Shown here: positions 4,993 through 55,422 of the stretch, piece after piece
Layout of the letters: every line of letters starts with the position of its first letter
Numbering within the stretch: position 1 is the first letter of the stretch
NCBI GenBank assembly: GCA_030017995.1
Contig: JASEGS010000002.1
Span: forward strand, 21,463-85,462
DNA: 64,000 nt
Reading direction: 5' to 3'
DNA from: Thermodesulfovibrionales bacterium
Lineage (GTDB): Bacteria; Nitrospirota; Thermodesulfovibrionia; Thermodesulfovibrionales; Dissulfurispiraceae
Translations under genes and position numbers: made by a program
Notes under the pieces: model-generated
Told to the model about the DNA's origin: nothing
The model's input: only the letters and a program-made list of their open reading frames with translations
The model's database searches: none

Positions 4993-5127
4993 CATCAACA
5001 GAGCAGAAGAGCAGAAGAGCAATAGTTTTCAAGTCCCAATGGCATAAAATAAATAATATCTTATTTTTCAGGTTGTTATCTGTTAACTTCCGCTCTACTG
5101 ATCTTCTGCTCTATTGCTCTGTTGATG
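4993..5127. repeat. octad-phased palindromic element (GAGCAGAA family)
   Basis: Left arm CATCAACA GAGCAGAA GAGCAGAA GAGCAATA (4993..5025). Right arm TTCCGCTC TACTGATC TTCTGCTC TATTGCTC TGTTGATG (5088..5127) is the complement form of the same 8-mers. Spacer about 60 nt. Confidence 0.85.
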
Positions 5128-5423: not shown

Positions 5424-5454
5424 AAATAATGGTTTGGGAAGTGAAGGAGACAAA

Positions 5455-6681
5455 ATGAAAAGATTTTTAGCAGTAGTTTTAGGCGCAATGCTTGTATTAG
5501 GCTTTGCAGTCAGTGCATTTGCTCAGGATGGTTTAAAGCTGAGCGGCTCACTAACAATGAGGGGCTGGTATTTAGATACCCTGGACAACAATTCTAATGA
5601 TGGAAATGGTGATGATGCTTACTATGACACACAGTTAAGGCTGATGTTTGATGCAACAGTCGGCAAGGCAAAGGCAGTGATTGAGCTGCAGAATGGTGCA
5701 GGCGGTTCATCAAAATGGGGCAGAAACACAGATTTCCAGGCTGCTGAAAATATGAACCTCAGCGTTAAACAGGCATATATCGCATTTCCTGTAGCAGGAC
5801 TCAACATCAGCGCTGGTCATCAGCTTTTGTCACTGGGTGTAAAGTCCTTCTTTGATGCATCAAAGGACGGCGCAAAGGCGATTCTTGTTACATATCCTTT
5901 TGATAAGAAGAATATAGTGGGCGTAGGCACAATAAAGGCACTTGATACTGATGTTCTTGCATCAACTGCAATTGCTGAAGACAAAGATATTTATTTTGGT
6001 CTTGCAAGCTTTGATCTCAACGGACATACACTCGGACTGAATGCAGCGGCTGTGATAGATAATGCGGTTGCTAAAAGCCACCTCTACAACTGGGCACTTA
6101 CACTTAACGGTAAGCTTGGCGCTGGTTTAGGTTACACACTCGCAGCAGATATCCAGACCGGCAAACAAGATGGAGCAAATGATAACAAAGGCTACCATGT
6201 AAGAGGCGCATTGAGCTATCAGGCAACACCTGAGCTTAACCTCAGCGCAGCGAGCATTTACTTCAGCGGTGAGGAGAGCGGCGCTGATGTAAAGAAATTT
6301 GTAACATTCCTTGAAGACACAAACTATGCAACATGGGTATTCGGTTACATGAACAGGGGCTTTGGTGCTACAATCGGAACAGGAACTCCTGCACCTGGCG
6401 GCTTCTGGTTTAACAGGCTTGCAGCAGACTATAAGGCGACAAAAGACCTTTCAGTTGGCCTTGCTTATATCAACATAAGAGGAACATATGATAGTTCAGT
6501 TAACGCAAGCAAGGAAGTAGGCAATGAAATTGACTTTACAATTGCTTACAATATATCAAAAGGTCTTACCTACAATGTTATAGGCGGTTTCCTGATGCCT
6601 GGTAAGGCATATGAAAATGCCAATCCTCTCAGGGATGATACAGCTATTGGTATCAGGCACGCACTTACACTCAGCTTCTAA
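5455..6681 (+). CDS. outer-membrane porin-like beta-barrel protein
   Basis: ATG at 5455 preceded by AAGGAG (5444..5449). Signal peptide MKRFLAVVLGAMLVLGFAVSAFA. Gly/Ala/Thr-rich alternating strands. C-terminal ...ALTLSF with terminal Phe. Confidence 0.7.
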   Translation: MKRFLAVVLGAMLVLGFAVSAFAQDGLKLSGSLTMRGWYLDTLDNNSNDGNGDDAYYDTQLRLMFDATVGKAKAVIELQNGAGGSSKWGRNTDFQAAENMNLSVKQAYIAFPVAGLNISAGHQLLSLGVKSFFDASKDGAKAILVTYPFDKKNIVGVGTIKALDTDVLASTAIAEDKDIYFGLASFDLNGHTLGLNAAAVIDNAVAKSHLYNWALTLNGKLGAGLGYTLAADIQTGKQDGANDNKGYHVRGALSYQATPELNLSAASIYFSGEESGADVKKFVTFLEDTNYATWVFGYMNRGFGATIGTGTPAPGGFWFNRLAADYKATKDLSVGLAYINIRGTYDSSVNASKEVGNEIDFTIAYNISKGLTYNVIGGFLMPGKAYENANPLRDDTAIGIRHALTLSF

Positions 6682-6684
6682 TTA

Positions 6685-6737
6685 GCTCGGAAGAGCAGAA
6701 GAGCGGAAGCTCAGAAGTTGAGAGGATAAGAAGTTCA
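6685..6737. repeat. half element of the GAGCAGAA octad family
   Basis: GCTCGGAA GAGCAGAA GAGCGGAA GCTCAGAA directly after the porin stop codon. No complementary arm follows. Confidence 0.7.
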
Positions 6738-6819: not shown

Positions 6820-8463
6820 TTGAATTTGAGCGCTAAAGGCAAAATAGCAAAGGCTGCTGGAGCAATGTCAGCGGCGACCTTTATTAGCCGCATACTCGGC
6901 TATGTAAAGGACATGATACTGGCAAAGTTCTTTGGCGCCACAGGCGCAGCAGATGTTTTTTTTGTCGCCTTCAGGATCCCAAATCTATTGAGGGAGCTTT
7001 TTGCAGAAGGCTCCATGTCATCGGCATTTGTCCCTGTTTTGACAGAGTATCAGACAAAAGAGGGAAGGGATGAGGCGAACAGACTTGTAAGAGCAGCATT
7101 TATATTCATTGTCATCTTTGTCGGCATTGTATGTATTCTGGGGATCATGTTTGCCCCTGCGATTGTATCAGCAATTGCACCCGGATTTTTGAGCGATTCT
7201 GAAAAGTTTTCAGATACAGTGCTTCTTACGAGGATAATGTTTCCTTTTCTTTTGTTTATAAGCCTTGCATCTTTATTTATGGGCGCTCTTAACACAAGGG
7301 GCGTGTTTTTTATCCCAGCTTTAGCGCCTGCGCTTTTGAATGTTGTAACTATCGTTTCTGTCCTGACCCTTTCCATGCATTTTGTAAATCCAATTATATC
7401 AGTGGCAATTGGCGTAACAGCCGGAGGGCTTGTCCAGTTTCTTTTTCAACTGCCGTCATTTTTCAAACAAGGATACACTTTCAGAAGTCAGAAGCCAGAA
7501 GCCAGAAGCCAGAAGCCGAAAATCTCTGATTTAAACTCATCACTCATCACTCATCACTCATCACTGTCTTTCTGGCATCCGGGACTAAAGAGAATAGGCA
7601 TCCTCATTTTGCCTGCTACTGCCGGTATGGCAGTAGCTCAGATAAATATATTCATAAGCACTATCCTTGCATCATATCTTGCAGAGGGGAGTATTACATA
7701 TCTTTATTATTCGATGAGGCTGATACAATTCCCAATTGGCATATTCGGTGTTGCTATGGGAATGGCTGTGCTTCCAGCATTATCTGAGCATTCTGTGAAG
7801 GGAGAGACTGATAAACTTAAAGAGGATTTCTCTTTTGCCCTTCGCCTCCTGTTTTTTATAACTGTTCCTGCGATGATAGGACTTATCGCTTTGAAGGCTC
7901 CAATTGTAAGCACGCTTTTTCAGCGAGGCAAGTTTGGATATGATGCGACCATAGGCACATCAGATGCGCTTATGTTTTATTCATTTGGCATATGGGCAAT
8001 AGTGGGCGTTAGGGTTATCACCTCAACCTTTTATTCGATGCAGGATACAAAGACGCCTGTAAAAATAGCTGCCTTTGCAGTGCTTATAAATATTGTGATG
8101 AGCATCATGCTCATGGGTCCTATGAAGCACAACGGGCTTGCCTTTGCGAATGCCATTGCGTCGAGTTGTAATTTTGTATTGTTATTTTATTTTTTAAGAA
8201 AGAGGCTCGGGGGCATAGGCACAAAGAGAATAGCGCTCTGTTTTTCAAAGACATTGATAGCATCTTCAGTTATGGGGATTGCAGGGTGGCTTATTGTCAG
8301 GAGCGAGGTGTGGACATTAAGCGGTCATAGTCTCAAGAAGGCTGCATATCTCGGTTCAGCAATAATAATTAGCAGCGTAATATACCTGTTGCTGTCTTAT
8401 TTACTAAAGAGTGAAGAGATGAGGTATATTACAGATAAGATAAGGCAAAAACTTGGAATATAA
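6820..8463 (+). CDS. murJ: lipid II flippase MurJ (MviN family), with an in-frame repeat insertion
   Basis: 547 aa. N-terminal SRILGYVKDMILAKFFGA...FFVAFRIPNLLRELFAEGSMSSAFVP signature and many TM segments. TTG start. Confidence 0.9.
   Translation: MNLSAKGKIAKAAGAMSAATFISRILGYVKDMILAKFFGATGAADVFFVAFRIPNLLRELFAEGSMSSAFVPVLTEYQTKEGRDEANRLVRAAFIFIVIFVGIVCILGIMFAPAIVSAIAPGFLSDSEKFSDTVLLTRIMFPFLLFISLASLFMGALNTRGVFFIPALAPALLNVVTIVSVLTLSMHFVNPIISVAIGVTAGGLVQFLFQLPSFFKQGYTFRSQKPEARSQKPKISDLNSSLITHHSSLSFWHPGLKRIGILILPATAGMAVAQINIFISTILASYLAEGSITYLYYSMRLIQFPIGIFGVAMGMAVLPALSEHSVKGETDKLKEDFSFALRLLFFITVPAMIGLIALKAPIVSTLFQRGKFGYDATIGTSDALMFYSFGIWAIVGVRVITSTFYSMQDTKTPVKIAAFAVLINIVMSIMLMGPMKHNGLAFANAIASSCNFVLLFYFLRKRLGGIGTKRIALCFSKTLIASSVMGIAGWLIVRSEVWTLSGHSLKKAAYLGSAIIISSVIYLLLSYLLKSEEMRYITDKIRQKLGI
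7482..7565 (+). repeat. heptad-phased tandem repeat block inside murJ (84 nt, 12 heptads, 28 codons)
   Basis: CAGAAGT, then CAGAAGC x4, three degenerate heptads, then CATCACT x4. Translates to SQKPEARSQKPKISDLNSSLITHHSSLS. Confidence 0.9.
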
Positions 8464-11076: not shown

Positions 11077-12440
11077 GGTTATTCGGCACTGATGGAATAA
11101 GAGGCAGAGTAAATAAGGCTCCAATGATTCCGGAAAATGTTCTAAGAACAGGCATGGCTATTGCTCATGTGTTAAAAAACAATCCCCAAAATGATCATGG
11201 ACGGAATATGGTGTTGATCGGTAAAGACACCAGGCTCTCTGGTTATATGATCGAGAGTTCCCTTACATCGGGCATATGTTCCATGGGAATGAATGTGACC
11301 CTAGTAGGACCTGTGCCGACCCCGGCGGTTTCTTTCCTGGCACGCACATTAAGGCTTGATGCGGGCATAGTGATTTCAGCCTCTCATAATCCATTTGAAG
11401 ATAACGGCATAAAAGTATTTTCTGCAAGCGGCTTTAAGCTTTCTGATGAACTGGAGAGGGAGATAGAAAGGCTTGTGGCTGATAATGATTTCCCTAAAAA
11501 AAGACCATCAGGAGAGAAGATAGGCAGGGCGTTCAGACTGGATGATGCCACCGGCAGATACATAGAGTATGTAAAATCTACAATACCAAAGGGCGTAGAT
11601 CTTGAGGGATTGAAGGTGGTGGTGGATGCAGCCAATGGCGCTGCTTATAAGGTCACCCAATGGCTGCTAAGGGAATTAGGGGCAGAGGTAATATCTATCA
11701 ACGATAAACCTGATGGTATAAATATTAATGACAACTGTGGTTCTTTGCACATGGATTGTCTTATCAAAACAGTTAAGGAGACTGCTGCCCATGTGGGAAT
11801 AGCTCATGATGGGGATGCGGACAGGACCATTTTTGTGGATGAAAAGGGCAATGTTGTGGACGGTGATCTGATATTGGGGATATGGGCAACAGAACTTAAA
11901 AGGGAAGATAAGCTGAAGGGCAATGGAATTGTCGCCACTGTTATGTCCAACCTGGGTCTTGAGAGATATTTAGAAAGATTAGATATCAGACTTATCAGAA
12001 CAAAGGTGGGAGATAGATATGTTGTGGAAGAGATGAAAAGGGGTGGATATAATCTGGGAGGGGAACAGTCAGGGCATATAATATTTTTTGATTACAACAC
12101 TACAGGAGATGGCCCTGTAACAGCCCTTCAGATCTTATGCCTTATGAGGAAGAAAAACAAACTCATCTCTGAGCTGACAAGCAATATAGACCTCTATCCA
12201 CAAGTGCTTTTAAATGTTCCTGTTTCTGATAAGAAGAAATTAGAGGATGTCCCGGCTATAAAAAAGGTTATTGATGAATCTGTAAAAAAACTTGGAAACA
12301 GGGGCAGAATACTTGTGAGACCTTCGGGAACAGAGTCGAAGATAAGGGTTATGGTTGAGGCAGATGATTTAGATATTGCAAGAAATCTGGCTGAAGATAT
12401 GGCAGGGGTTATAAGAAAAACCATGGGCGAGAGACAATAG
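11073..12440 (+). CDS. glmM: phosphoglucosamine mutase
   Basis: 455 aa. MRLFGTDGIRG start. Phosphoserine loop ISASHNPFEDNGIK. GDADR metal loop. Confidence 0.96.
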   Translation: MRLFGTDGIRGRVNKAPMIPENVLRTGMAIAHVLKNNPQNDHGRNMVLIGKDTRLSGYMIESSLTSGICSMGMNVTLVGPVPTPAVSFLARTLRLDAGIVISASHNPFEDNGIKVFSASGFKLSDELEREIERLVADNDFPKKRPSGEKIGRAFRLDDATGRYIEYVKSTIPKGVDLEGLKVVVDAANGAAYKVTQWLLRELGAEVISINDKPDGININDNCGSLHMDCLIKTVKETAAHVGIAHDGDADRTIFVDEKGNVVDGDLILGIWATELKREDKLKGNGIVATVMSNLGLERYLERLDIRLIRTKVGDRYVVEEMKRGGYNLGGEQSGHIIFFDYNTTGDGPVTALQILCLMRKKNKLISELTSNIDLYPQVLLNVPVSDKKKLEDVPAIKKVIDESVKKLGNRGRILVRPSGTESKIRVMVEADDLDIARNLAEDMAGVIRKTMGERQ

Positions 12441-12461: not shown

Positions 12462-14885
12462 ATGTCCTATTTCATTTTTTTCATTTGCGGCGCAGCGCTT
12501 TTTTACATTCATAGATACTTTCCATTTACAAGCCTTTCTATATTCATGGTAATTGCAGGCCTGCATTTATTTTTCAGCACAAAGAAAAAGTTTGCTCGCA
12601 GTTCATTTCTTGGCGCTGCCTCAATGGTGATTATTGCCTTCCTTGGGTTCTATTATGCCAATCTTTGGCATAAACCACAGATCCCTCCCTCAGAGATTGC
12701 CGGCAGGAGTGTAATAGTCGAGGGCATTGCAAGATCAGAAGCAGTTCAGTTAACCAATGGCGTTTTCTCGCAATTGATTGAAGTTAAAAAAGCAGAGGAT
12801 GAACATGGGAATATAATAAATTTAAAAGAGATCAAATTATTCAGCAATGCCCGGTTTAGCAATAACAGAATATTTATGATAAAGGCAAAGATCCCTGCTG
12901 AATCTTATTTCCTGAATCCATGGGGTGTAAGAAATCGTGTTCATGGTTATGTCTATGAGACAATTGAGACAGGCAGTAGAGACTTGGGATTTTTCGAGGA
13001 AACAAGGCTCAAACTCAATAGATTTTTAAAGGATAATTTTACAAGTGAATCTTCCGCATTTCTCATGTCCATTATAACAGGGGAGAGAGGTTTGCTAAAG
13101 AAGGAGACGAGAGACGCATTTAACTCAACAGGGCTTGCCCATATACTTAGCATATCAGGAGCTCACTTTGGATTGTTATTCTTTATCGTGTTCAAGTTTT
13201 TTAGAGTTTTGGTGAAACTGCTTCCGTATAATCTTCTTGCAAGATTAACGCTCTATATTACGCCGTCTCAGATAGCCGCAGTTCTGTCTATCCCGGTAAT
13301 GATCGGCTATCTCGGCATTTCAGATATGAGTTTTCCAGCCATCAGGTCATTTATCATGATAACCCTCTTTCTCTTTGGTCTCGTGATCCAAAGAAGAGGT
13401 TTTTGGCTGAATACATTGCTCTTTGCAGCAGTCGTGATAATTTTGATCCAGCCTGATTCGATCCTCGACCTCTCATTCCAGCTTTCTTTTATTGCTGTAT
13501 TGTGCATTGGACTGACAGCAGAACAGAAGGGCGGAAGAGCAGAAGAGCAGCAGTTTAAAAAAGAGGGAGCAACTCCATATGTCGAAGCTACCGGTCTACT
13601 GCTCTACTGGTCTGCTGCTCTAAAGTTCTGCTCTTCTGCGCTGAAAATTTCCCTCGCTGCAACCATTGGCACAGCGCCAATTGTGGCTTATTATTTTCAT
13701 TATTTCTCCCTTATATCGCCTCTTGCAAATCTTATTATTACGCCTGTTATTGGATTCATTATCCTCCCTGCAGCGCTTATCTCTTCATTTATCTTTCTTG
13801 TATCCGGCATCTTTCCTGCTCATGCAATTATAGACAAGCTCACCGCATTTGTTATCTCAGCAATAAAATATATTGCACAGTGGGGTTTTACAGAAGTGAA
13901 GATAGCAGCCTTTCCTCTCATATTGCTTGTGATGTTTTATGCCGGGATATTGTTTTATGTGTTCATAAAGAACAGGCAGGAACAGTCCAAAGCGTTATCT
14001 GTTATTTTGACGATAACCGTTTCTGTCATCCCATTTATCGTCTATGCAGTTATAAGGTTTTCTGAGCACAAGGGTATACAGATTACCTATCTTGATGTAG
14101 GGCAGGGAGATTCTGCTGTGGTCGAATTGTCTGATAAAAGGATACTTGTAGTGGATACAGGCAGAAACGGTTTTCAGACAGGCGAGTTTTTGCGATATAG
14201 AGGCATTAAAGAGATCGACGCTGTCGTTTTATCTCATGGTCAATCAGACCATGCAGGCGGCATAGAACAGCTTATAAAGAACTTTAAGGTCAATGAGATA
14301 TGGGATAACGGCAGGCAGGTTTATCCAGAGGGTTTTTTAAAAGGCATTCGGCACAGGGTATTACAGCGGGGAGATGTTGTGAAAGGCAATGGATATAGAA
14401 TTGTATTTGTCCATCCATATGATGGATTTTACACGCTATATTCGGGTAACAATGATGAAAACAACGAATGTCTTGTATTCAAGATTCAGGGGATTAAAAA
14501 TACTTTTCTCTTTACAGGGGACATTGAGGAAGAGGCTGAAAGCGATATTGCACATTTAGACGAGAAGATTAAGAGCAGTGTTTTAAAGGTTCCGCACCAC
14601 GGAAGCCGGACATCCACATCAGAAATATTTATGTATGCAGTTTCTCCTGAGATCGCGGTAATAAGCTCAGGGAGGAGAAATTCATACGGCCATCCTCATG
14701 AAGAGACGCTTGATAAATTTGGCAATATCCGTGTGCTGAGGACAGATCTGGATGGAGCGATAAATATAAGAGAACTATCCGATGGAAGCCTTAAAATCCG
14801 GACATGGAAGGACTTTCAGATAACAGAGGTAAAAGGGTTGAAACAAGAATTCAAGAATTTAGAAAAACTATTTCTTGTATGGTAG
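12462..14885 (+). CDS. comEC: DNA internalization-related competence protein ComEC/Rec2, with an in-frame repeat insertion
   Basis: 807 aa. Polytopic competence domain plus C-terminal MBL domain (YLDVGQGDS, LSHGQSDHAGG, VPHHGS). Confidence 0.85.
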   Translation: MSYFIFFICGAALFYIHRYFPFTSLSIFMVIAGLHLFFSTKKKFARSSFLGAASMVIIAFLGFYYANLWHKPQIPPSEIAGRSVIVEGIARSEAVQLTNGVFSQLIEVKKAEDEHGNIINLKEIKLFSNARFSNNRIFMIKAKIPAESYFLNPWGVRNRVHGYVYETIETGSRDLGFFEETRLKLNRFLKDNFTSESSAFLMSIITGERGLLKKETRDAFNSTGLAHILSISGAHFGLLFFIVFKFFRVLVKLLPYNLLARLTLYITPSQIAAVLSIPVMIGYLGISDMSFPAIRSFIMITLFLFGLVIQRRGFWLNTLLFAAVVIILIQPDSILDLSFQLSFIAVLCIGLTAEQKGGRAEEQQFKKEGATPYVEATGLLLYWSAALKFCSSALKISLAATIGTAPIVAYYFHYFSLISPLANLIITPVIGFIILPAALISSFIFLVSGIFPAHAIIDKLTAFVISAIKYIAQWGFTEVKIAAFPLILLVMFYAGILFYVFIKNRQEQSKALSVILTITVSVIPFIVYAVIRFSEHKGIQITYLDVGQGDSAVVELSDKRILVVDTGRNGFQTGEFLRYRGIKEIDAVVLSHGQSDHAGGIEQLIKNFKVNEIWDNGRQVYPEGFLKGIRHRVLQRGDVVKGNGYRIVFVHPYDGFYTLYSGNNDENNECLVFKIQGIKNTFLFTGDIEEEAESDIAHLDEKIKSSVLKVPHHGSRTSTSEIFMYAVSPEIAVISSGRRNSYGHPHEETLDKFGNIRVLRTDLDGAINIRELSDGSLKIRTWKDFQITEVKGLKQEFKNLEKLFLVW
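13516..13643. repeat. palindromic GAGCAGAA-family element inside comEC
   Basis: Left arm CAGCAGAACAGAAGGGCGGAAGAGCAGAAGAGCAGCAG. Right arm CTACTGCTCTACTGGTCTGCTGCTCTAAAGTTCTGCTCTTCTGCGCTG. Read through in frame as AEQKGGRAEEQQFKKEGATPYVEATGLLLYWSAALKFCSSAL. Confidence 0.8.
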
Positions 14886-21197: not shown

Positions 21198-21313
<116 letters not shown>

Positions 21314-21322
21314 TTAAAATAG

Positions 21323-42778: not shown

Positions 42779-42850
42779 GCACAGGACTGATGTATGCGTT
42801 TAATCCATCAGAGGATGTTTTTGAAAGGATTGTTTAACGCAAAAAATCCA

Positions 42851-45568
42851 ATGAATAAAATGCAATGGCATAAGAAAAAAAATGAAGATGTAATTGAACA
42901 ACTACAGTCATCACTTGGGGGACTTTCCCCGGCGGAGGCTCGGAAGCGTCTTTCCGAATACGGTCCCAACGAGCTAATGGAGAAAAAAAAGAAGACTCCG
43001 CTCATGATGTTCCTTGACCAGTTCAAGGACTTCATGATCCTCGTTCTTATCGCTGCTGCAATCGTGTCAGGAATTATCGGCGAGCCCTCGGATACCATAG
43101 CGATTGTTGTAATAGTTGTTCTTAATGCCATCATAGGCTTTGTTCAAGAATACAGGGCTGAAAAGGCAATGGTCGCACTCAAACAAATGGCTGCGCCGTT
43201 TGCAACAGTAATAAGGGACGGGATGCCTGCAAATATCCCTGCATCAGCGCTTGTCCCCGGAGATATAGTAATCCTTGATGCCGGAAATGTCGTGCCTGCG
43301 GATATGAGGCTGACAGAGACCGCCATGTTAAAGATAGAGGAAGCTGCACTTACCGGCGAGTCCGTGCCTGTTGAAAAGCATACAAAGGCATTGCATGATG
43401 AGCATTTGCCGCTTGGCGATAGAAAGAACATGGCATATAAAGGCACATTTACAACTTATGGCCGCGGTATGGGAGTTGTTACGGCAACAGGTATGGATAC
43501 GGAGCTTGGCAAGATTGCAGCAATGCTCCAGGAGGAAGAAGAGGTAAAAATACCGCTTCAGAAAAGGCTTGCCAAATTCGGGCAGAAACTTGCAATTGCC
43601 GTCCTTGCAATATGCGCTATTGTCTTCGGCATCGGCATTTTAAGAGGAGAAGCGCCTTTATTGATGCTCCTTACAGCCATTTCCCTTGCTGTGGCGGCAA
43701 TACCAGAGGCGCTTCCGGCAGTTGTAACCATTTCACTCGCCCTCGGAGCGAAAAAGATGGTGAAGCAGAATGCCTTGATAAGAAAACTTCCGGCAGTAGA
43801 AACCCTCGGCTCCGTTACCTATATCTGTTCGGATAAAACAGGAACCCTTACTTTGAACAAAATGACGGTGGAAGAGATTTATGTGGATGGAAAATTAGTA
43901 AGAGCAGAAGAGCAAAAGAGCGGAAGATCAGAAGCAACAGATTTTAGAACTTCTGCACTTCTGCGCTTCCCGACTTCTGCGCTTTTTACTGCCCTTGCTT
44001 TGAGCAATGACGCGCAGGTGGATGCCTCAGGCAATGTAATAGGCGACCCAACTGAAATTGCATTGTACAACATTGCAAGGGATAAAGGTTTTGATAAGAG
44101 GGAACTGGAAAAGAAATTCCCGAGGGTTGCGGAAATTCCATTCGATTCGGACAGGAAATGTATGACGACAATACATGGAGCAGAAGAGCAGAAGAGCAGA
44201 AGTGCGGAAGGAAAGACTTCCGAACTTCCGAGCTTCCGCTCTAATTTCGTTTCTTTTACAAAAGGTGCGATAGAAGTATTGATTGACAAGTCGGATTATA
44301 TCCTGATATCTGATGGACTGAAGGCAGTGGATAAGGCAGAAATCCACAAAGCAAGCGAAAGAATGGCTACTGATGGGTTGAGGGTACTGGGCATTGCAAT
44401 GAGGAGATGGGACAAACTGCCTGATGACATGTCTCTTGAGAATGTAGAGACAGGACTCACTATTTTAGGTCTTGTGGGGATGATGGATCCTCCGAGGGAA
44501 GAGGCTAAAGAGGCGGTTGCGCTTTGCAAGACCGCGGGCATAAGACCTGTGATGATAACCGGAGACCATCCTATTACCGCAAAGACAATAGCCGAAAGGC
44601 TCGGAATAATAGAGGACGATTCAAGACATATAATCACCGGCAGGGAATTGGAAAGACTGCCATTGGAAGAATTTGAAACGCGGGTCGAGCATATACGCGT
44701 ATATGCCCGCGTCGCTCCCGAACAGAAATTAAAAATAATAAAGGCCCTTCAGGACAGGGGGCAGTTCGTCGCGATGACAGGAGACGGGGTGAATGACGCC
44801 CCTGCATTAAAAAGGGCGGATATAGGGATTGCTATGGGGATTACGGGAACGGATCTATCCAAAGAAGCTTCCGATATGATCCTGCTCGATGACAATTTCG
44901 CGACCATTGTAAAGGCGGTGAAAGAGGGAAGGAAGATATACGACAACATAAGAAAGTTCATAAAATATCTCCTCACGACGAATTCAGGCGAGATATGGAC
45001 GCTTTTCTTAGCTCCGCTTGCAGGGCTGCCGATCCCGCTTCTGCCGATCCATATACTCTGGATAAACCTCATGACAGACGGCCTTCCCGCCCTCGCACTA
45101 TCCGTAGAGCCGGCAGAAGGAGATGTAATGAGAAGGCAGCCGCGTCATCCGCAGGAGAGCATATTCGCGGGAGGTTTGGGCCTTCATGCGATATGGGTAG
45201 GGTTGCTGATGGCAGGCATTGTTTTGTTTGTTCAGGCTTGGAGCATTAAGACAGGAAACGCCCATTGGCAGACAATGGTATTTACTGTGCTTTGCCTGAC
45301 TCAGCTCGGACATGTGCTTGCAATAAGGTCGGAGAGCGAGTCGCTGTTTAAGATCGGATTGTTTTCAAATAATGCCCTTCTCGGAGCGGTTGTTTTAAGT
45401 TTTGCATTCCAGATAGCAACTATTTATGCACCTGTCCTGAATCCAATATTTAAGACAGAGCCATTAACTTTGAACGAACTGATATTTACACTCGGCCTGT
45501 CATCTGTGGTATTCTTTGCAGTCGAGATTGAAAAGTTTGTCAGGAGGAAGAAATGGCAGATGTCATAA
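42851..45568 (+). CDS. P-type ATPase, type IIA (Ca2+/cation-transporting, SERCA/PMCA-like), with two in-frame repeat insertions
   Basis: DKTGTLT phosphorylation site, [26 protein letters not shown]. Start uncertain (42851 or 42860; tracked ORF starts at 42794). Confidence 0.93.
43902..43981. repeat. octad-phased palindrome inside the ATPase gene (insertion 1)
   Basis: GAGCAGAA GAGCAAAA GAGCGGAA GATCAGAA GCAACAGA TTTTAGAA CTTCTGCA CTTCTGCG CTTCCCGA CTTCTGCG. Translated as [28 protein letters not shown]. Confidence 0.9.
44178..44241. repeat. octad-phased palindrome inside the ATPase gene (insertion 2)
   Basis: GAGCAGAA x3, GTGCGGAA, GGAAAGAC, TTCCGAAC, TTCCGAGC, TTCCGCTC. Translated as [21 protein letters not shown]. 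Confidence 0.9.
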
Positions 45569-49847: not shown

Positions 49848-51149
49848 ATGGAGAAAAATAAAATCAATGTAGGGATAATAGGATTCGGCACTGTCGGCAC
49901 AGGCGCTGCAAAGATATTGCTTGAAAACTCCGGAGTCATTAAAAAACGCACAGGAATTGATTTTGTCTTAAAGCGTATCGCAGACCTCGACATAAAAAGG
50001 GACAGAGGAATCAAGATTCCCCAAGGCGTTCTTACGACCGACGCAAACGCGATTCTTAATGATCCTGAGATAGACATAATTGTAGAGCTTATGGGTGGTA
50101 TCCGTCCTGCGAAGGACTTCATGCTCAATGCAATAAAAAACAAAAAGCATGTTGTTACCGCGAACAAGGCCCTTCTTGCGACAGAGGGAAATGAGATATT
50201 CGGCGAGGCTGAAAAGAACGGAGTCGAAGTAGGGTTTGAGGCGTCTGTTGCAGGAGGTATTCCGATAATAAAGGTCTTGAGGGAAGGGCTGGTTGCAAAC
50301 AATATAATAGCTGTTTACGGGATCATCAACGGCACATCCAATTATATTCTTACAAAGATGACGGATGAAAAGGTCGAATTCTCGGATGCGCTGAAGGAGG
50401 CGCAGAGGCTCGGCTATGCAGAGGCTGATCCTACATTCGACATAGAAGGCATTGACACAGCGCACAAACTTACAATCCTTTCGTCACTCGCTTACGGGAT
50501 TCCGCTTTCTTATAATGAGGTTTACAAAGAAGGCATTACAAAGATAACTGCTCAGGATATAGAATTCGCATCAGAGCTCGGCTATAAGATAAAACTGCTT
50601 GCGATAACAAAGCTGTCTAACGGAGCAATAGAGATGCGGGTGCACCCTACGATGATACCGAATGAATATCTGATCTCAAAGGTTGACGGAGTTTTTAATG
50701 CGGTTTATGTAGAAGGAGACACTGTTGGCTCGACCCTCTATTATGGAAGAGGAGCCGGAGATATGCCCACAGGAAGCGCTGTTGTAGCTGACATCGTTGA
50801 CATAGGGAAAAATATAGCGGCAGGTACCGTGCAGTCTGGATTAAGGATGCAGGATTCAGGACTCAGGATAAAGAAGATGGAAGACATAGAGAGCATGTAC
50901 TATTTCAGATTTTCAGCGATGGATGAACCGGGCGTGCTTTCAAAGATTTCCGGAATACTTGGCAATTACAATATAAGCATTGCGTCAGTTATTCAGAAAG
51001 GCAGGAGGCTTGGGGGCTCTGTCCCTCTTGTGGTTCTCACGCATACTGCAAAGGAGAGAGATGTGCTCAGCGCCGTGAAGGAGATAGATAACCTTCATAT
51101 TGTCTCTGACAAGACAATTTTTATAAGGGTGGAAGGCAAGGAAGAATAA
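49848..51149 (+). CDS. hom: homoserine dehydrogenase
   Basis: 433 aa. GIIGFGTVGTG NAD fold. Catalytic domain. C-terminal ACT domain. Confidence 0.93.
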   Translation: MEKNKINVGIIGFGTVGTGAAKILLENSGVIKKRTGIDFVLKRIADLDIKRDRGIKIPQGVLTTDANAILNDPEIDIIVELMGGIRPAKDFMLNAIKNKKHVVTANKALLATEGNEIFGEAEKNGVEVGFEASVAGGIPIIKVLREGLVANNIIAVYGIINGTSNYILTKMTDEKVEFSDALKEAQRLGYAEADPTFDIEGIDTAHKLTILSSLAYGIPLSYNEVYKEGITKITAQDIEFASELGYKIKLLAITKLSNGAIEMRVHPTMIPNEYLISKVDGVFNAVYVEGDTVGSTLYYGRGAGDMPTGSAVVADIVDIGKNIAAGTVQSGLRMQDSGLRIKKMEDIESMYYFRFSAMDEPGVLSKISGILGNYNISIASVIQKGRRLGGSVPLVVLTHTAKERDVLSAVKEIDNLHIVSDKTIFIRVEGKEE

Positions 51150-55080: not shown

Positions 55081-55317
55081 ATGAAAATGCGGGTTAAATT
55101 AACTTTTCCCCAACATCTTATTAAAGAGCCTGTGTTATTTACCATGGCAAAAAAGTTTGATGTGATGCCCAATATAAGAAGGGCAAGGGTAACAGATACT
55201 GTCGGAGAGATGGTGCTTGAACTTGAGGGAGAAGAGGATAACCTCAAAAAGGGCATGCAAACCCTGAAGGACCATGGCATAGAGGTCGAACTGATAGAAG
55301 GAGACGTAATAGAGTGA
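55081..55317 (+). CDS. stand-alone NIL domain protein
   Basis: ATG 5 nt after GGAGG. 78 aa. MKMRVKLTFPQHLIKEPVLFTMAKKFDVMPNIRRARV... resembles the NIL (MetN C-terminal-like) fold. Confidence 0.7.
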   Translation: MKMRVKLTFPQHLIKEPVLFTMAKKFDVMPNIRRARVTDTVGEMVLELEGEEDNLKKGMQTLKDHGIEVELIEGDVIE

Positions 55318-55422
55318 ATGAGTTAATGGGTTAAAGAGTTAATATGCAGTGAATAAAATTATTTTTTGTATTTTTATAACTCATATACCCATCCGCTCAT
55401 ATGCGCATTAACTAATTCAACG
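55312..55422. repeat. octad-phased palindrome filling the NIL-thrC spacer
   Basis: Left GAGTGAAT GAGTTAAT GGGTTAAA GAGTTAAT. Right TATAACTC ATATACCC ATCCGCTC ATATGCGC ATTAACTA. Confidence 0.8.

Follow-up and report, generated by a model that had tools for sequence, protein, structure and literature searches.

Phased palindromic repeats read in frame into two loops of a P-type ATPase from a Thermodesulfovibrionales bacterium

We analyzed a 64,000-nt stretch (hereafter the window) of contig JASEGS010000002.1, positions 21,463 to 85,462, from the genome assembly GCA_030017995.1 of a Thermodesulfovibrionales bacterium (Nitrospirota). Within it, a gene for a P-type (P2, Ca2+-type) ATPase at 42794-45568 contains two hairpin-forming arrays of tandem octads inside its coding sequence, element 1 at 43900-43984 (site 1) and element 2 at 44178-44242 (site 2); coordinates are those of the window, and the ATPase gene and the repeat arrays located in the window are given on the + strand. 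We consider it reasonably probable, at about 60%, that these elements are tolerated members of a dispersed class of phased palindromic repeats that are filtered to permissive protein loops, read into low-complexity loop sequence and shuffled by short-patch recombination. To our knowledge there is essentially one textbook case of in-frame palindromic repeats in bacterial genes, that of Rickettsia, an obligate intracellular organism with a reduced genome. Here a Rickettsia-like outcome is encountered in free-living anaerobes, with a phased architecture and at a scale that permits comparison.

Element 1 reads GAGCAGAA GAGCAAAA GAGCGGAA GATCAGAA, followed by the loop GCAACAGATTTTAGAA and then by CTTCTGCA CTTCTGCG CTTCCCGA CTTCTGCG. 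Its left arm (43900-43934), identified both by Tandem Repeats Finder (TRF) and by a repeat finder, consists of 4.4 octads with the consensus AAGAGCAG (in the GAGCAGAA register) and encodes 11 residues. The loop of about 14-16 nt, CAACAGATTTTAGA, was placed at 43935-43948 from the fold and the alignment and is kept among the orthologs having the same cassette in an alignment of 11 orthologs, while the right arm (43949-43984; TRF) comprises 4.5 complementary octads, ACTTCTGC, and encodes 12 residues. The stem reaches into the flanks AGTAA/TTACT (43897-43990). Element 2 is made of three GAGCAGAA units plus GTGCGGAA, the loop GGAAAGA, and CTTCCGAA CTTCCGAG CTTCCGCT; its left arm (44178-44210; TRF and repeat finder) holds 4.1 octads of GAGCAGAA and encodes 10 residues, the fold places a loop of 6 nt at 44211-44216, and the right arm (44217-44242) holds 2.9-3.2 complementary octads (CTTCCGAA/CTTCCGAG) encoding TSELPSFRS, TRF giving 2.9 copies at 44216-44238. 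According to the repeat finder the arms are complementary at 71% over 35 nt in element 1 and at 81% over 26 nt in element 2. When folded as RNA and compared with 200 dinucleotide-preserving shuffles, element 1 gave -32.1 kcal/mol (z -3.5; 1/200 shuffles as good) and element 2 gave -31.7 kcal/mol (z -5.0; 0/200). The two octad-built palindromes that an earlier note on this DNA had placed at 43902-43981 and 44178-44241 are thus present at nearly those positions and fold beyond their shuffles. T-rich tracts come after both elements; a scan for terminator-like structures flagged neither, and an Rfam search at gathering and E-value thresholds returned no match except a chance sub-threshold microRNA hairpin.

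Since periods of 7 or 8 are coprime with 3, such an array runs through all three reading frames. Read in any frame and on either strand, the GAGCAGAA unit and its complement are free of stop codons; this, together with a net length divisible by three, is why the reading frame survives. In heptad families with a potential stop, the unit that falls in frame is mutated, as at site 1 of the orthologous locus L004. The GAGCAGAA unit and its variants contain no G-tracts and are not units of the G-quadruplex type.

Both elements lie inside a single open frame of 924 codons that is read through without stops, as had been claimed; the annotated product (P0001) has 915 aa. The open reading frame (ORF) is 100% identical to an NCBI entry named cation-translocating P-type ATPase (Thermodesulfovibrionales bacterium), on which the Pfam domains Cation_ATPase_N, E1-E2_ATPase, Hydrolase, Cation_ATPase and Cation_ATPase_C are found. 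Catalytic P-type motifs, including the DKTGT phosphorylation motif, are invariant in an alignment of 25 sequences (the query and 24 orthologs of 74-84% identity), and the closest solved structure is that of the Listeria Ca2+-ATPase LMCA1 (E 2e-26, N/P segment). By its motifs, Pfam set and LMCA1 relative, we assign the product to the P2-type Ca2+-ATPases, with Ca2+ specificity predicted, and the gene is by the same sequence evidence intact and not a pseudogene. Independent assemblies (NCBI, ENA, JGI and Logan) have the same or related cassettes at identical codon positions, which excludes an assembly artefact, and both flanks of every cassette belong to one and the same ATPase gene.

In an attempt to determine how much sequence the elements add, we measured the segments between invariant anchors (DKTGTLT to GDPTE for site 1, MTT to SFTKGA for site 2) in 68 orthologous loci and about 105 proteins. 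The site 1 segment ranges from 48 to 73 aa (63 aa here; 48-49 aa in the shortest orthologs) and the site 2 segment from 9 to 61 aa (27 aa here; 9-10 aa in the shortest). Compared with the shortest orthologs, the excess is 15 residues at site 1 and 18 at site 2, and relative to the LMCA1 sequence it is 12 and 18, so that the net insertions amount to about 12-15 and 18 residues. The earlier note gave 28 and 21, which is too large because the whole repeat-derived stretch was counted, part of which overlies pre-existing loop. The central codons of element 2, GAA GGA AAG (E-G-K, 44207-44215), match the D-G-K turn of insert-free orthologs, which read RWPDGK, RRQDGK or QAKDGK at this position.

An AlphaFold model built with 25 close homologs had a mean predicted local distance difference test score (pLDDT) of 46.5 overall and was poor for the membrane part, leaving only the nucleotide-binding (N) domain usable. 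The N domain scored 70-87, and within it values below 50 were confined to the two inserts (residues 372-392 and 465-481). In the model, site 1 joins strand 367-370 to helix 394-402, as a linker after the first beta-hairpin, and site 2 is the turn or tip between strands 456-462 and 485-491 of a beta-hairpin. Site 2 would correspond to the exposed loop that contains the T1 tryptic site in SERCA. The N-domain part of the model, together with the 12- and 18-residue gaps in the LMCA1 sequence alignment, indicates that both inserts probably lie in solvent-exposed, length-tolerant loops of the N domain, consistent with the surface-loop placement previously proposed. The predicted insert peptides are of low complexity and low pLDDT, with the purine-rich arm encoding hydrophilic residues and the complementary arm being rich in Ser, Leu, Phe and Pro.

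At exactly these two positions, the loops of distant orthologs are short, lack repeats and are unstructured, and in no ortholog was homologous non-repetitive sequence found in place of either insert. The clean indels expected from an alignment of orthologs were seen in part; the sites are not the result of clean one-off events but hypervariable hot spots. Nearly all orthologs of at least about 73% identity have repeat-like content at one or both sites, of differing kinds: heptads (GAGTCAG, CGAGTTA, GGATACA, GGGGTTA, GGGGTCA, AGTTAAA), octads (GAGCAGAA/GCGCGGAA and GGGGTCAA) and G/C-rich palindromes of the CCCCCTTTAGTAAAGGGGG type, whose peptides are PPLLKGG-like. The same two loops hold more than 10 unrelated repeat types, and many of the ortholog cassettes fold at z -4 to -11. 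Many unrelated unit families have repeatedly landed or been retained in these loops, as in those of MurJ, ComEC, TsaD and QueC described below.

Some further features of the ATPase loci were noted. A second, non-periodic class of elements occupies the same loops in L014, L016, L018, L021, L031, L039, L041 and L048; these are G/C-rich palindromes (e.g., CCCCCCTTTAGTAAAGGGGGG and CCCTCTCCCGCAAGGGGAGAGGG; 81 nt at site 2 of L018) that reach z -11 and encode PPLLKGG or PLPQGERE-type peptides, with further copies at L004 17583-17628 and L018 2253-2301. At site 2 of L019 (about 11340-11440), comparison with L091 shows the GGATACA left arm broken by a small palindrome, GCTCGCCTCGGGCGAGTCGCCGAGGAG, a repeat inserted into a repeat. 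The proteins P0013 (and the L-set) and P0003 are 91% identical outside the sites and differ at site 2 by the absence or presence of a cassette ('NFHSN' and 'KAEDQKIRSAEGNISELPSFSTN', respectively); the short form looks like the long one reduced to its outer residues (K..FSTN) by excision of a hairpin, and may be a deletion footprint. Upstream of the ATPase ortholog in L085, at 6-1290, two short genes, of 114 and 302 aa, which match Cation_ATPase and Cation_ATPase_C, look like pieces of a second, broken copy of a P-type ATPase.

The ATPase elements belong to a larger population of arrays. We found 15 arrays of period 7 or 8 in the window, compared with 0.75 +/- 0.94 (maximum 4) in sixty third-order Markov simulations, about 20 times the number expected, and this abundance is not due to chance. 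The GAGCAGAA-type octad occurs at five or more loci in the 64 kb, both intergenic and coding. An intergenic hairpin of the same family as the ATPase elements lies at 5000-5120 ((AGAGCAGA)x2.8, a 70-nt loop and (GCTCTACT)x3.6; -52.3 kcal/mol, z -7.5), and a single-arm octad array (GAAGAGCA x3.5) is located at 6690-6717, directly 3′ of a porin-like ORF (5434-6681), with a GC-rich terminator-like hairpin after it; like elements near the porin gene had been mentioned before, and these two correspond to them. The competence channel protein ComEC (ORF 12462-14885; Pfam Competence and Lactamase_B) contains, at 13516-13640, the third hairpin of the GAGCAGAA family that lies in frame, with (CAGAAGAG)x4.4, a 44-nt loop and complementary arrays (z -3.8). 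The GAGCAGAA-family copies of the window have arms in common and loops that differ (6, 14, 44 and 70 nt). Other families are represented by an intergenic hairpin at 55307-55400 (TAATGAGT x4.5 and a degenerate complement; -29.3 kcal/mol, z -3.9), by a single-arm heptad array, GGATTCA x4.6, in frame at 50838-50869 in ORF 49848-51149, which we presume from its sequence to be homoserine-dehydrogenase-like, and by two adjoining heptad arrays in frame at 7482-7565 in MurJ (ORF 6820-8463; Pfam MurJ). The latter, (CAGAAGC)x5.1 and (ACTCATC)x4.4, are perfect and mutually non-complementary; they form no hairpin and fold worse than their shuffles (z +2.95).

We then considered 1.38 Mb of DNA around ATPase orthologs (partial genomes), about 1.15 Mb of which is outside the ATPase gene. 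TRF arrays of period 7 (94), 8 (48) and 9 (19) predominate, no other period exceeding 6, so that related loci hold both the octad period of the window's ATPase elements and the heptad period. Copy number peaks sharply at 4, in 78 of the 142 period-7/8 arrays and in 29 of the 63 that lie outside the ATPase, regardless of unit sequence and including units without G-tracts. The ATPase genes make up about one sixth of the DNA and contain 79 of these 142 arrays, every one at the two positions described. Outside them, 28 of the 63 arrays sit in long open frames, hairpins were found within TsaD and QueC, and the loop between transmembrane helices 6 and 7 of MurJ expands from a baseline of 8-10 aa to as many as 56 aa with diverse repeat-type cassettes. 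There are 41 pairs of arrays with complementary units within 130 nt. A periodic palindromic repeat class is abundant in Thermodesulfovibrionales genomes.

The dominant units differ from genome to genome, and similar hairpins are found in unrelated genes: site 2 of L007 resembles a hairpin in QueC of L024 (82% over 78 nt), and site 2 of L017 resembles one in TsaD of L019 (86% over 69 nt). Identical 8-mers at many loci and such near-full-length similarity between unrelated genes argue for dispersal. Three perfect GAGCAGAA units in tandem were found at no fewer than 120 metagenome and 3 viral loci, spanning GC contents of 0.2-0.7 and with an inverted partner in 4 of 124; as the bare array is not lineage-specific, scans for perfect units are uninformative on the element class. 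A search of metagenome contigs for the element 1 loop with its arm ends (GAAGYAACAGATYTTARAACTTC) gave 0 matches and so cannot tell whether this cassette exists outside the ATPase.

Comparisons of closely related alleles indicate how the cassettes turn over. The proteins P0069, P0092, P0096 and P0118 are 98-99.6% identical outside the sites and have four different site 2 cassettes, and the pairs P0006/P0010 and P0048/P0068, equally similar elsewhere, also have unrelated cassettes at site 2. Between L091 (P0069) and L092 (P0092), 77 of 2712 aligned columns differ, and these are clustered at site 2. L007, although diverged elsewhere, has an 81-nt cassette that is 100% identical to that of L092, and the ATPase coding sequence of L092 bordering the cassette (roughly 20 nt on the upstream side and 14 nt on the downstream side) has L007-type and not L091-type synonymous variants. 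As judged from these variants, the exchange at site 2 of L092 is a homologous recombination tract of about 115 nt from a diverged allele and not a fresh insertion. A similar pattern is seen at element 1. The window and its 84%-identical ortholog L001 have a nucleotide identity of 0.79 gene-wide (0.57 at third positions), which rises to 0.96-0.98 (0.96-1.0 at third positions) across element 1, and the tract of near-identity runs from about 43886 to 44026, about 45 nt beyond the element. In pairs having the same cassette the cassettes are more alike than their flanks (0.97 vs 0.78 at neighbouring synonymous sites for window/L001; 0.98 vs 0.72 for L013/L023), whereas non-repeat loops, used as a control, diverge faster than their flanks. 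We considered that such conservation of synonymous sites might reflect selection on the hairpin and dropped this interpretation, given that the recombination tracts of L091, L092 and L007 take in flanking gene sequence; the excess identity between the window and L001 is explained by the same short-tract process.

The site 1 cassette family is present in 11 orthologs, with a length of exactly 93 nt in 9 of the 11. In L008, L085 and L086 the cassettes are 71-77% identical to that of the window and the unit has become GCGCGGAA in the left arm and CTTCCG.. in the right arm, with hairpins as strong or stronger (z -3.9 to -6.1); the changed unit of L008 matches another array of the same genome, at 200-330. 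Decay of the hairpin, to z about 0, is seen in L084, L088 and L090, where an insert of 30-31 residues is retained. RNAalifold applied to the 11 cassettes gave a consensus of 11 pairs only, with a covariation term of 0.08, although covariation counting is weak here because arms of periodic units can pair in more than one register. Some lineages thus renew the match between the arms, following the repeat family of their own genome, and others have lost it with no harm to the gene; this pattern fits DNA-level homogenisation better than a required structure.

Each element of the class comprises about four tandem units of 7-8 nt, a short loop and about four complementary units. Taken together, these observations can be accommodated if the elements are tolerated and not needed, with selection leaving only insertions in permissive loops. 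Recent recombinational exchange would then make the cassettes more alike than the surrounding synonymous sites. The complementarity of the arms may be renewed at the DNA level, either by quasipalindrome template-switch correction, which is an established mutational process, or by conversion from other genomic copies, and palindrome-induced breaks may turn the sites into recombination hot spots. The earlier description of the elements as selfish repeats tolerated inside ORFs would hold for their tolerance in an intact frame; "selfish" is an inference that goes further.

Several observations weigh against this reading. No target-site duplication was found, nor a pair of empty and filled sites in an otherwise identical background, and no transposase was seen within the 64-kb window, where the Pfam scan covered ten ORFs; on these grounds the elements cannot be called mobile in the strict sense. 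The GAGCAGAA-family copies of the window, with common arms and differing loops, are unlike those of a discrete mobile element, and no common target motif emerged, as GATGGAAAA (D-G-K) is present at the two sites of the ATPase and absent from those of MurJ and ComEC. In several families, the site 1 array begins with a unit that overlaps native K-(I/L)-V codons (..TAGTAAGA running directly into GCAGAAGA..), and the site 2 loop retains the ancestral D/E-G-K turn codons. The exposure of the loops leans on the N-domain part of a model with a low mean pLDDT (46.5) and on the LMCA1 sequence alignment. Finally, cassette identity above that of synonymous sites, as well as the joint change of both arms in L008, L085 and L086, could also reflect selection acting on the nucleic acid.

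The overlap with native codons at site 1 and the turn codons kept at site 2 hint at growth in place. Slippage would amplify a local motif of 7-8 nt and template switching would copy its inverted complement, so that the palindrome is made at the locus and never moves. In addition to the K-(I/L)-V overlap and the ancestral GAT/GAA GGA AAA codons in site 2 loops, this would account for the single-arm arrays (6690-6717, MurJ, 50838-50869 and site 2 of L004 and L006), for loops that vary between copies of one family and for copy numbers held tightly at 4. It is nevertheless difficult to reconcile with the presence of the GAGCAGAA octad at no fewer than five unrelated loci within 64 kb, with identical 8-mers at many loci beyond chance, with dominant units that are genome-specific and with the near-full-length likeness of the L007 and L017 site 2 cassettes to hairpins in QueC and TsaD, and we consider it unlikely.

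We regard a selected function of the nucleic acid, such as pausing of translation at boundaries of N-domain folding, conditional attenuation within the gene, stabilisation of the mRNA or the provision of recombination hot spots, as slightly less plausible again. The T-rich tracts after both elements, the constant 93 nt in 9 of 11 orthologs, the co-change of the arms from GAGCAGAA to GCGCGGAA with the hairpin kept at 71-77% identity, and cassette identities far above those of neighbouring synonymous sites are all compatible with it. However, the high identity is accounted for by demonstrated short-tract recombination, the window/L001 tract extending about 45 nt past the element; the gene is kept where hairpins have decayed to z about 0 (L084, L088, L090); many orthologs have no element at all, and the MurJ arrays do not pair. 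Covariation was weak, and the terminator and Rfam searches were negative.

A selected function of the protein, with disordered new loops altering regulation or interactions of the pump, much as tandem repeats in Borg proteins make disordered regions, appears improbable. Insert length outlasts the decay of the hairpin, the same two loops are repeatedly filled, and the loops of coding copies are A-rich on the sense strand, giving Lys/Glu/Asn/Gly tips, while those of intergenic copies are not. Against this, unrelated peptides occupy the same site in near-identical alleles, many orthologs have none, the same repeat class is found in unrelated proteins and in intergenic DNA, and peptide composition mirrors the DNA palindrome. 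The notion that the repeats are assembly errors or that the gene is dead, for which it could be said that the source is a metagenome-assembled genome (MAG) and that repeats can mislead assemblers, can practically be discounted given the 924 uninterrupted codons, the invariant catalytic motifs and the recurrence of cassettes at the same codons, between the same gene flanks, in four independent sources. The checks proposed in the earlier note that were carried out, those bearing on a pseudogene or an artefact included, all favored its reading.

A bolder version of the dispersed-repeat interpretation, which we offer tentatively and consider unlikely, is that an active DNA process in Thermodesulfovibrionales builds or installs, at defined spots, phased palindromes with about four units of 7-8 nt in each arm and, together with palindrome-stimulated short-patch recombination, continually rewrites particular surface loops of essential proteins. 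If true, this would represent a new mobile or templated repeat system and a natural exchange of loop cassettes (Ca-ATPase, MurJ, ComEC, TsaD, QueC) instead of passive junk, and the four-copy rule in units that are not G-rich would suggest that these arrays share an enzymatic origin with the heptamer arrays, so far unexplained, of cyanobacteria and xanthomonads.

The closest comparison for the intragenic elements is with the Rickettsia palindromic elements (RPEs), which measure about 150 bp, form ten families, are confined to Rickettsia and have in each family a conserved consensus and a conserved peptide, without phased short units (Ogata et al., 2000, summarised in PMC10969869). Both are many-copy hairpin repeats that occur in frame in unrelated housekeeping genes at fold-compatible positions, and neither encodes its own transposase. 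The elements described here fold into hairpins and lie in frame in intact housekeeping ORFs (twice in the ATPase, in MurJ and in ComEC, and in TsaD and QueC in relatives), and the gaps relative to LMCA1, with low pLDDT confined to the inserts, suggest a fold-compatible position. They differ in being 65-95 nt long, with arms of about four tandem 7-8-nt units and loops that vary by copy, and in comprising dozens of unit types across a Nitrospirota order, with many families re-using the same protein loops. Compared with RPEs by description, they are not members of that group, on account of size, lack of a discrete consensus and lineage. The parallel drawn in the earlier note thus stands for in-frame, tolerated hairpins, but the periodic architecture that it contrasted with RPEs has a precedent in the heptamer arrays of Xanthomonas and Nostoc (PMC4692102).

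In those organisms, dispersed arrays of GGGAATC (Xanthomonas) and GGGGA(T/C)T (Nostoc; short tandemly repeated repetitive, or STRR, type) form convergent inverted pairs; about four copies are preferred, and the arrays are mostly intergenic, with 7-11% (Xanthomonas) and 32% (Nostoc) inside genes (Rehm et al., 2015, PMC4692102). Our elements are likewise dispersed short-unit arrays of about four copies, in close inverted stem-loop pairs, some of them intragenic and without association with insertion sequences (IS), and relatives of this genome have GGGGTTA/GGGATTA arrays close to the Nostoc unit. In-frame filling of defined loops of essential proteins, hot spots shared by multiple families and cassette exchange are not described there. 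The Xanthomonas and Nostoc heptamers are G-rich, and the four-unit preference was put down to G-quadruplex formation (PMC4692102). The octads of the window's ATPase have no G-tracts, so that this rationale is inapplicable to them, yet the same four-copy preference is observed, which argues against the quadruplex explanation for the related arrays as well.

Other repeat systems were considered. The TAACTGA heptamer repeats of Beggiatoaceae and cyanobacteria resemble our arrays in being abundant, phased, patchy across lineages and shaped in their placement by coding-frame constraints; they are intergenic, contain stop codons in one orientation and are nearly all direct, with 1 inverted set among 170 (PMC4679880). 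Repetitive extragenic palindromic (REP) sequences and their inverted doublets (REPINs), associated with RAYT transposases, are extragenic, 20-40 nt long, marked by a GTAG or CGTC tag and not periodic (PMC3116915, PMC3733652). They have in common with our elements that they are short imperfect palindromes, highly repeated, present as inverted doublets and subject to concerted evolution within a genome; we rejected identity with them, as the elements are intragenic, have periodic arms of 26-35 nt and show no visible GTAG/CGTC tag. We also rejected miniature inverted-repeat transposable elements, since here the whole element is an inverted repeat and the element 1 flanks AGTAA/TTACT extend the palindrome instead of forming direct repeats; no direct repeat was found at the element 2 flanks either, a parent IS not having been searched for. 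The absence of unique spacers, cassette ORFs and splicing domains, and of a template repeat or reverse transcriptase nearby, led us to reject CRISPR, integron attC sites, inteins and diversity-generating retroelements. The unit lengths of repeats within Borg ORFs are reportedly multiples of three. In PMC9879509, rapidly evolving tandem repeats are described as creating disordered regions in Borg proteins, a likeness to the fast-evolving repeats that add low-complexity or disordered segments here, with the difference that the Borg repeats described there are direct and not inverted. In open-access literature text, we found no description of such elements in Nitrospirota.

Whole cassettes differ between alleles that are 99.6% identical elsewhere. 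The cassettes provide a natural map of the P-type ATPase and MurJ loops that tolerate 15-50 extra residues, and make it possible to measure, in uncultured populations, how palindromes turn over and how short tracts recombine. A practical consequence for Nitrospirota MAGs is distorted protein clustering, as well as distorted alignments and phylogenies.

Elsewhere in the window, a 5S ribosomal RNA gene (103 bits) was detected at 21198-21314, with ordinary ORFs on both sides; as no 23S or 16S match was found in the whole 64 kb, it is apparently stand-alone. GC skew is positive in all 4-kb bins from 1 to 60000 and nearly all long ORFs of this region are on the + strand, which is presumably the leading strand.

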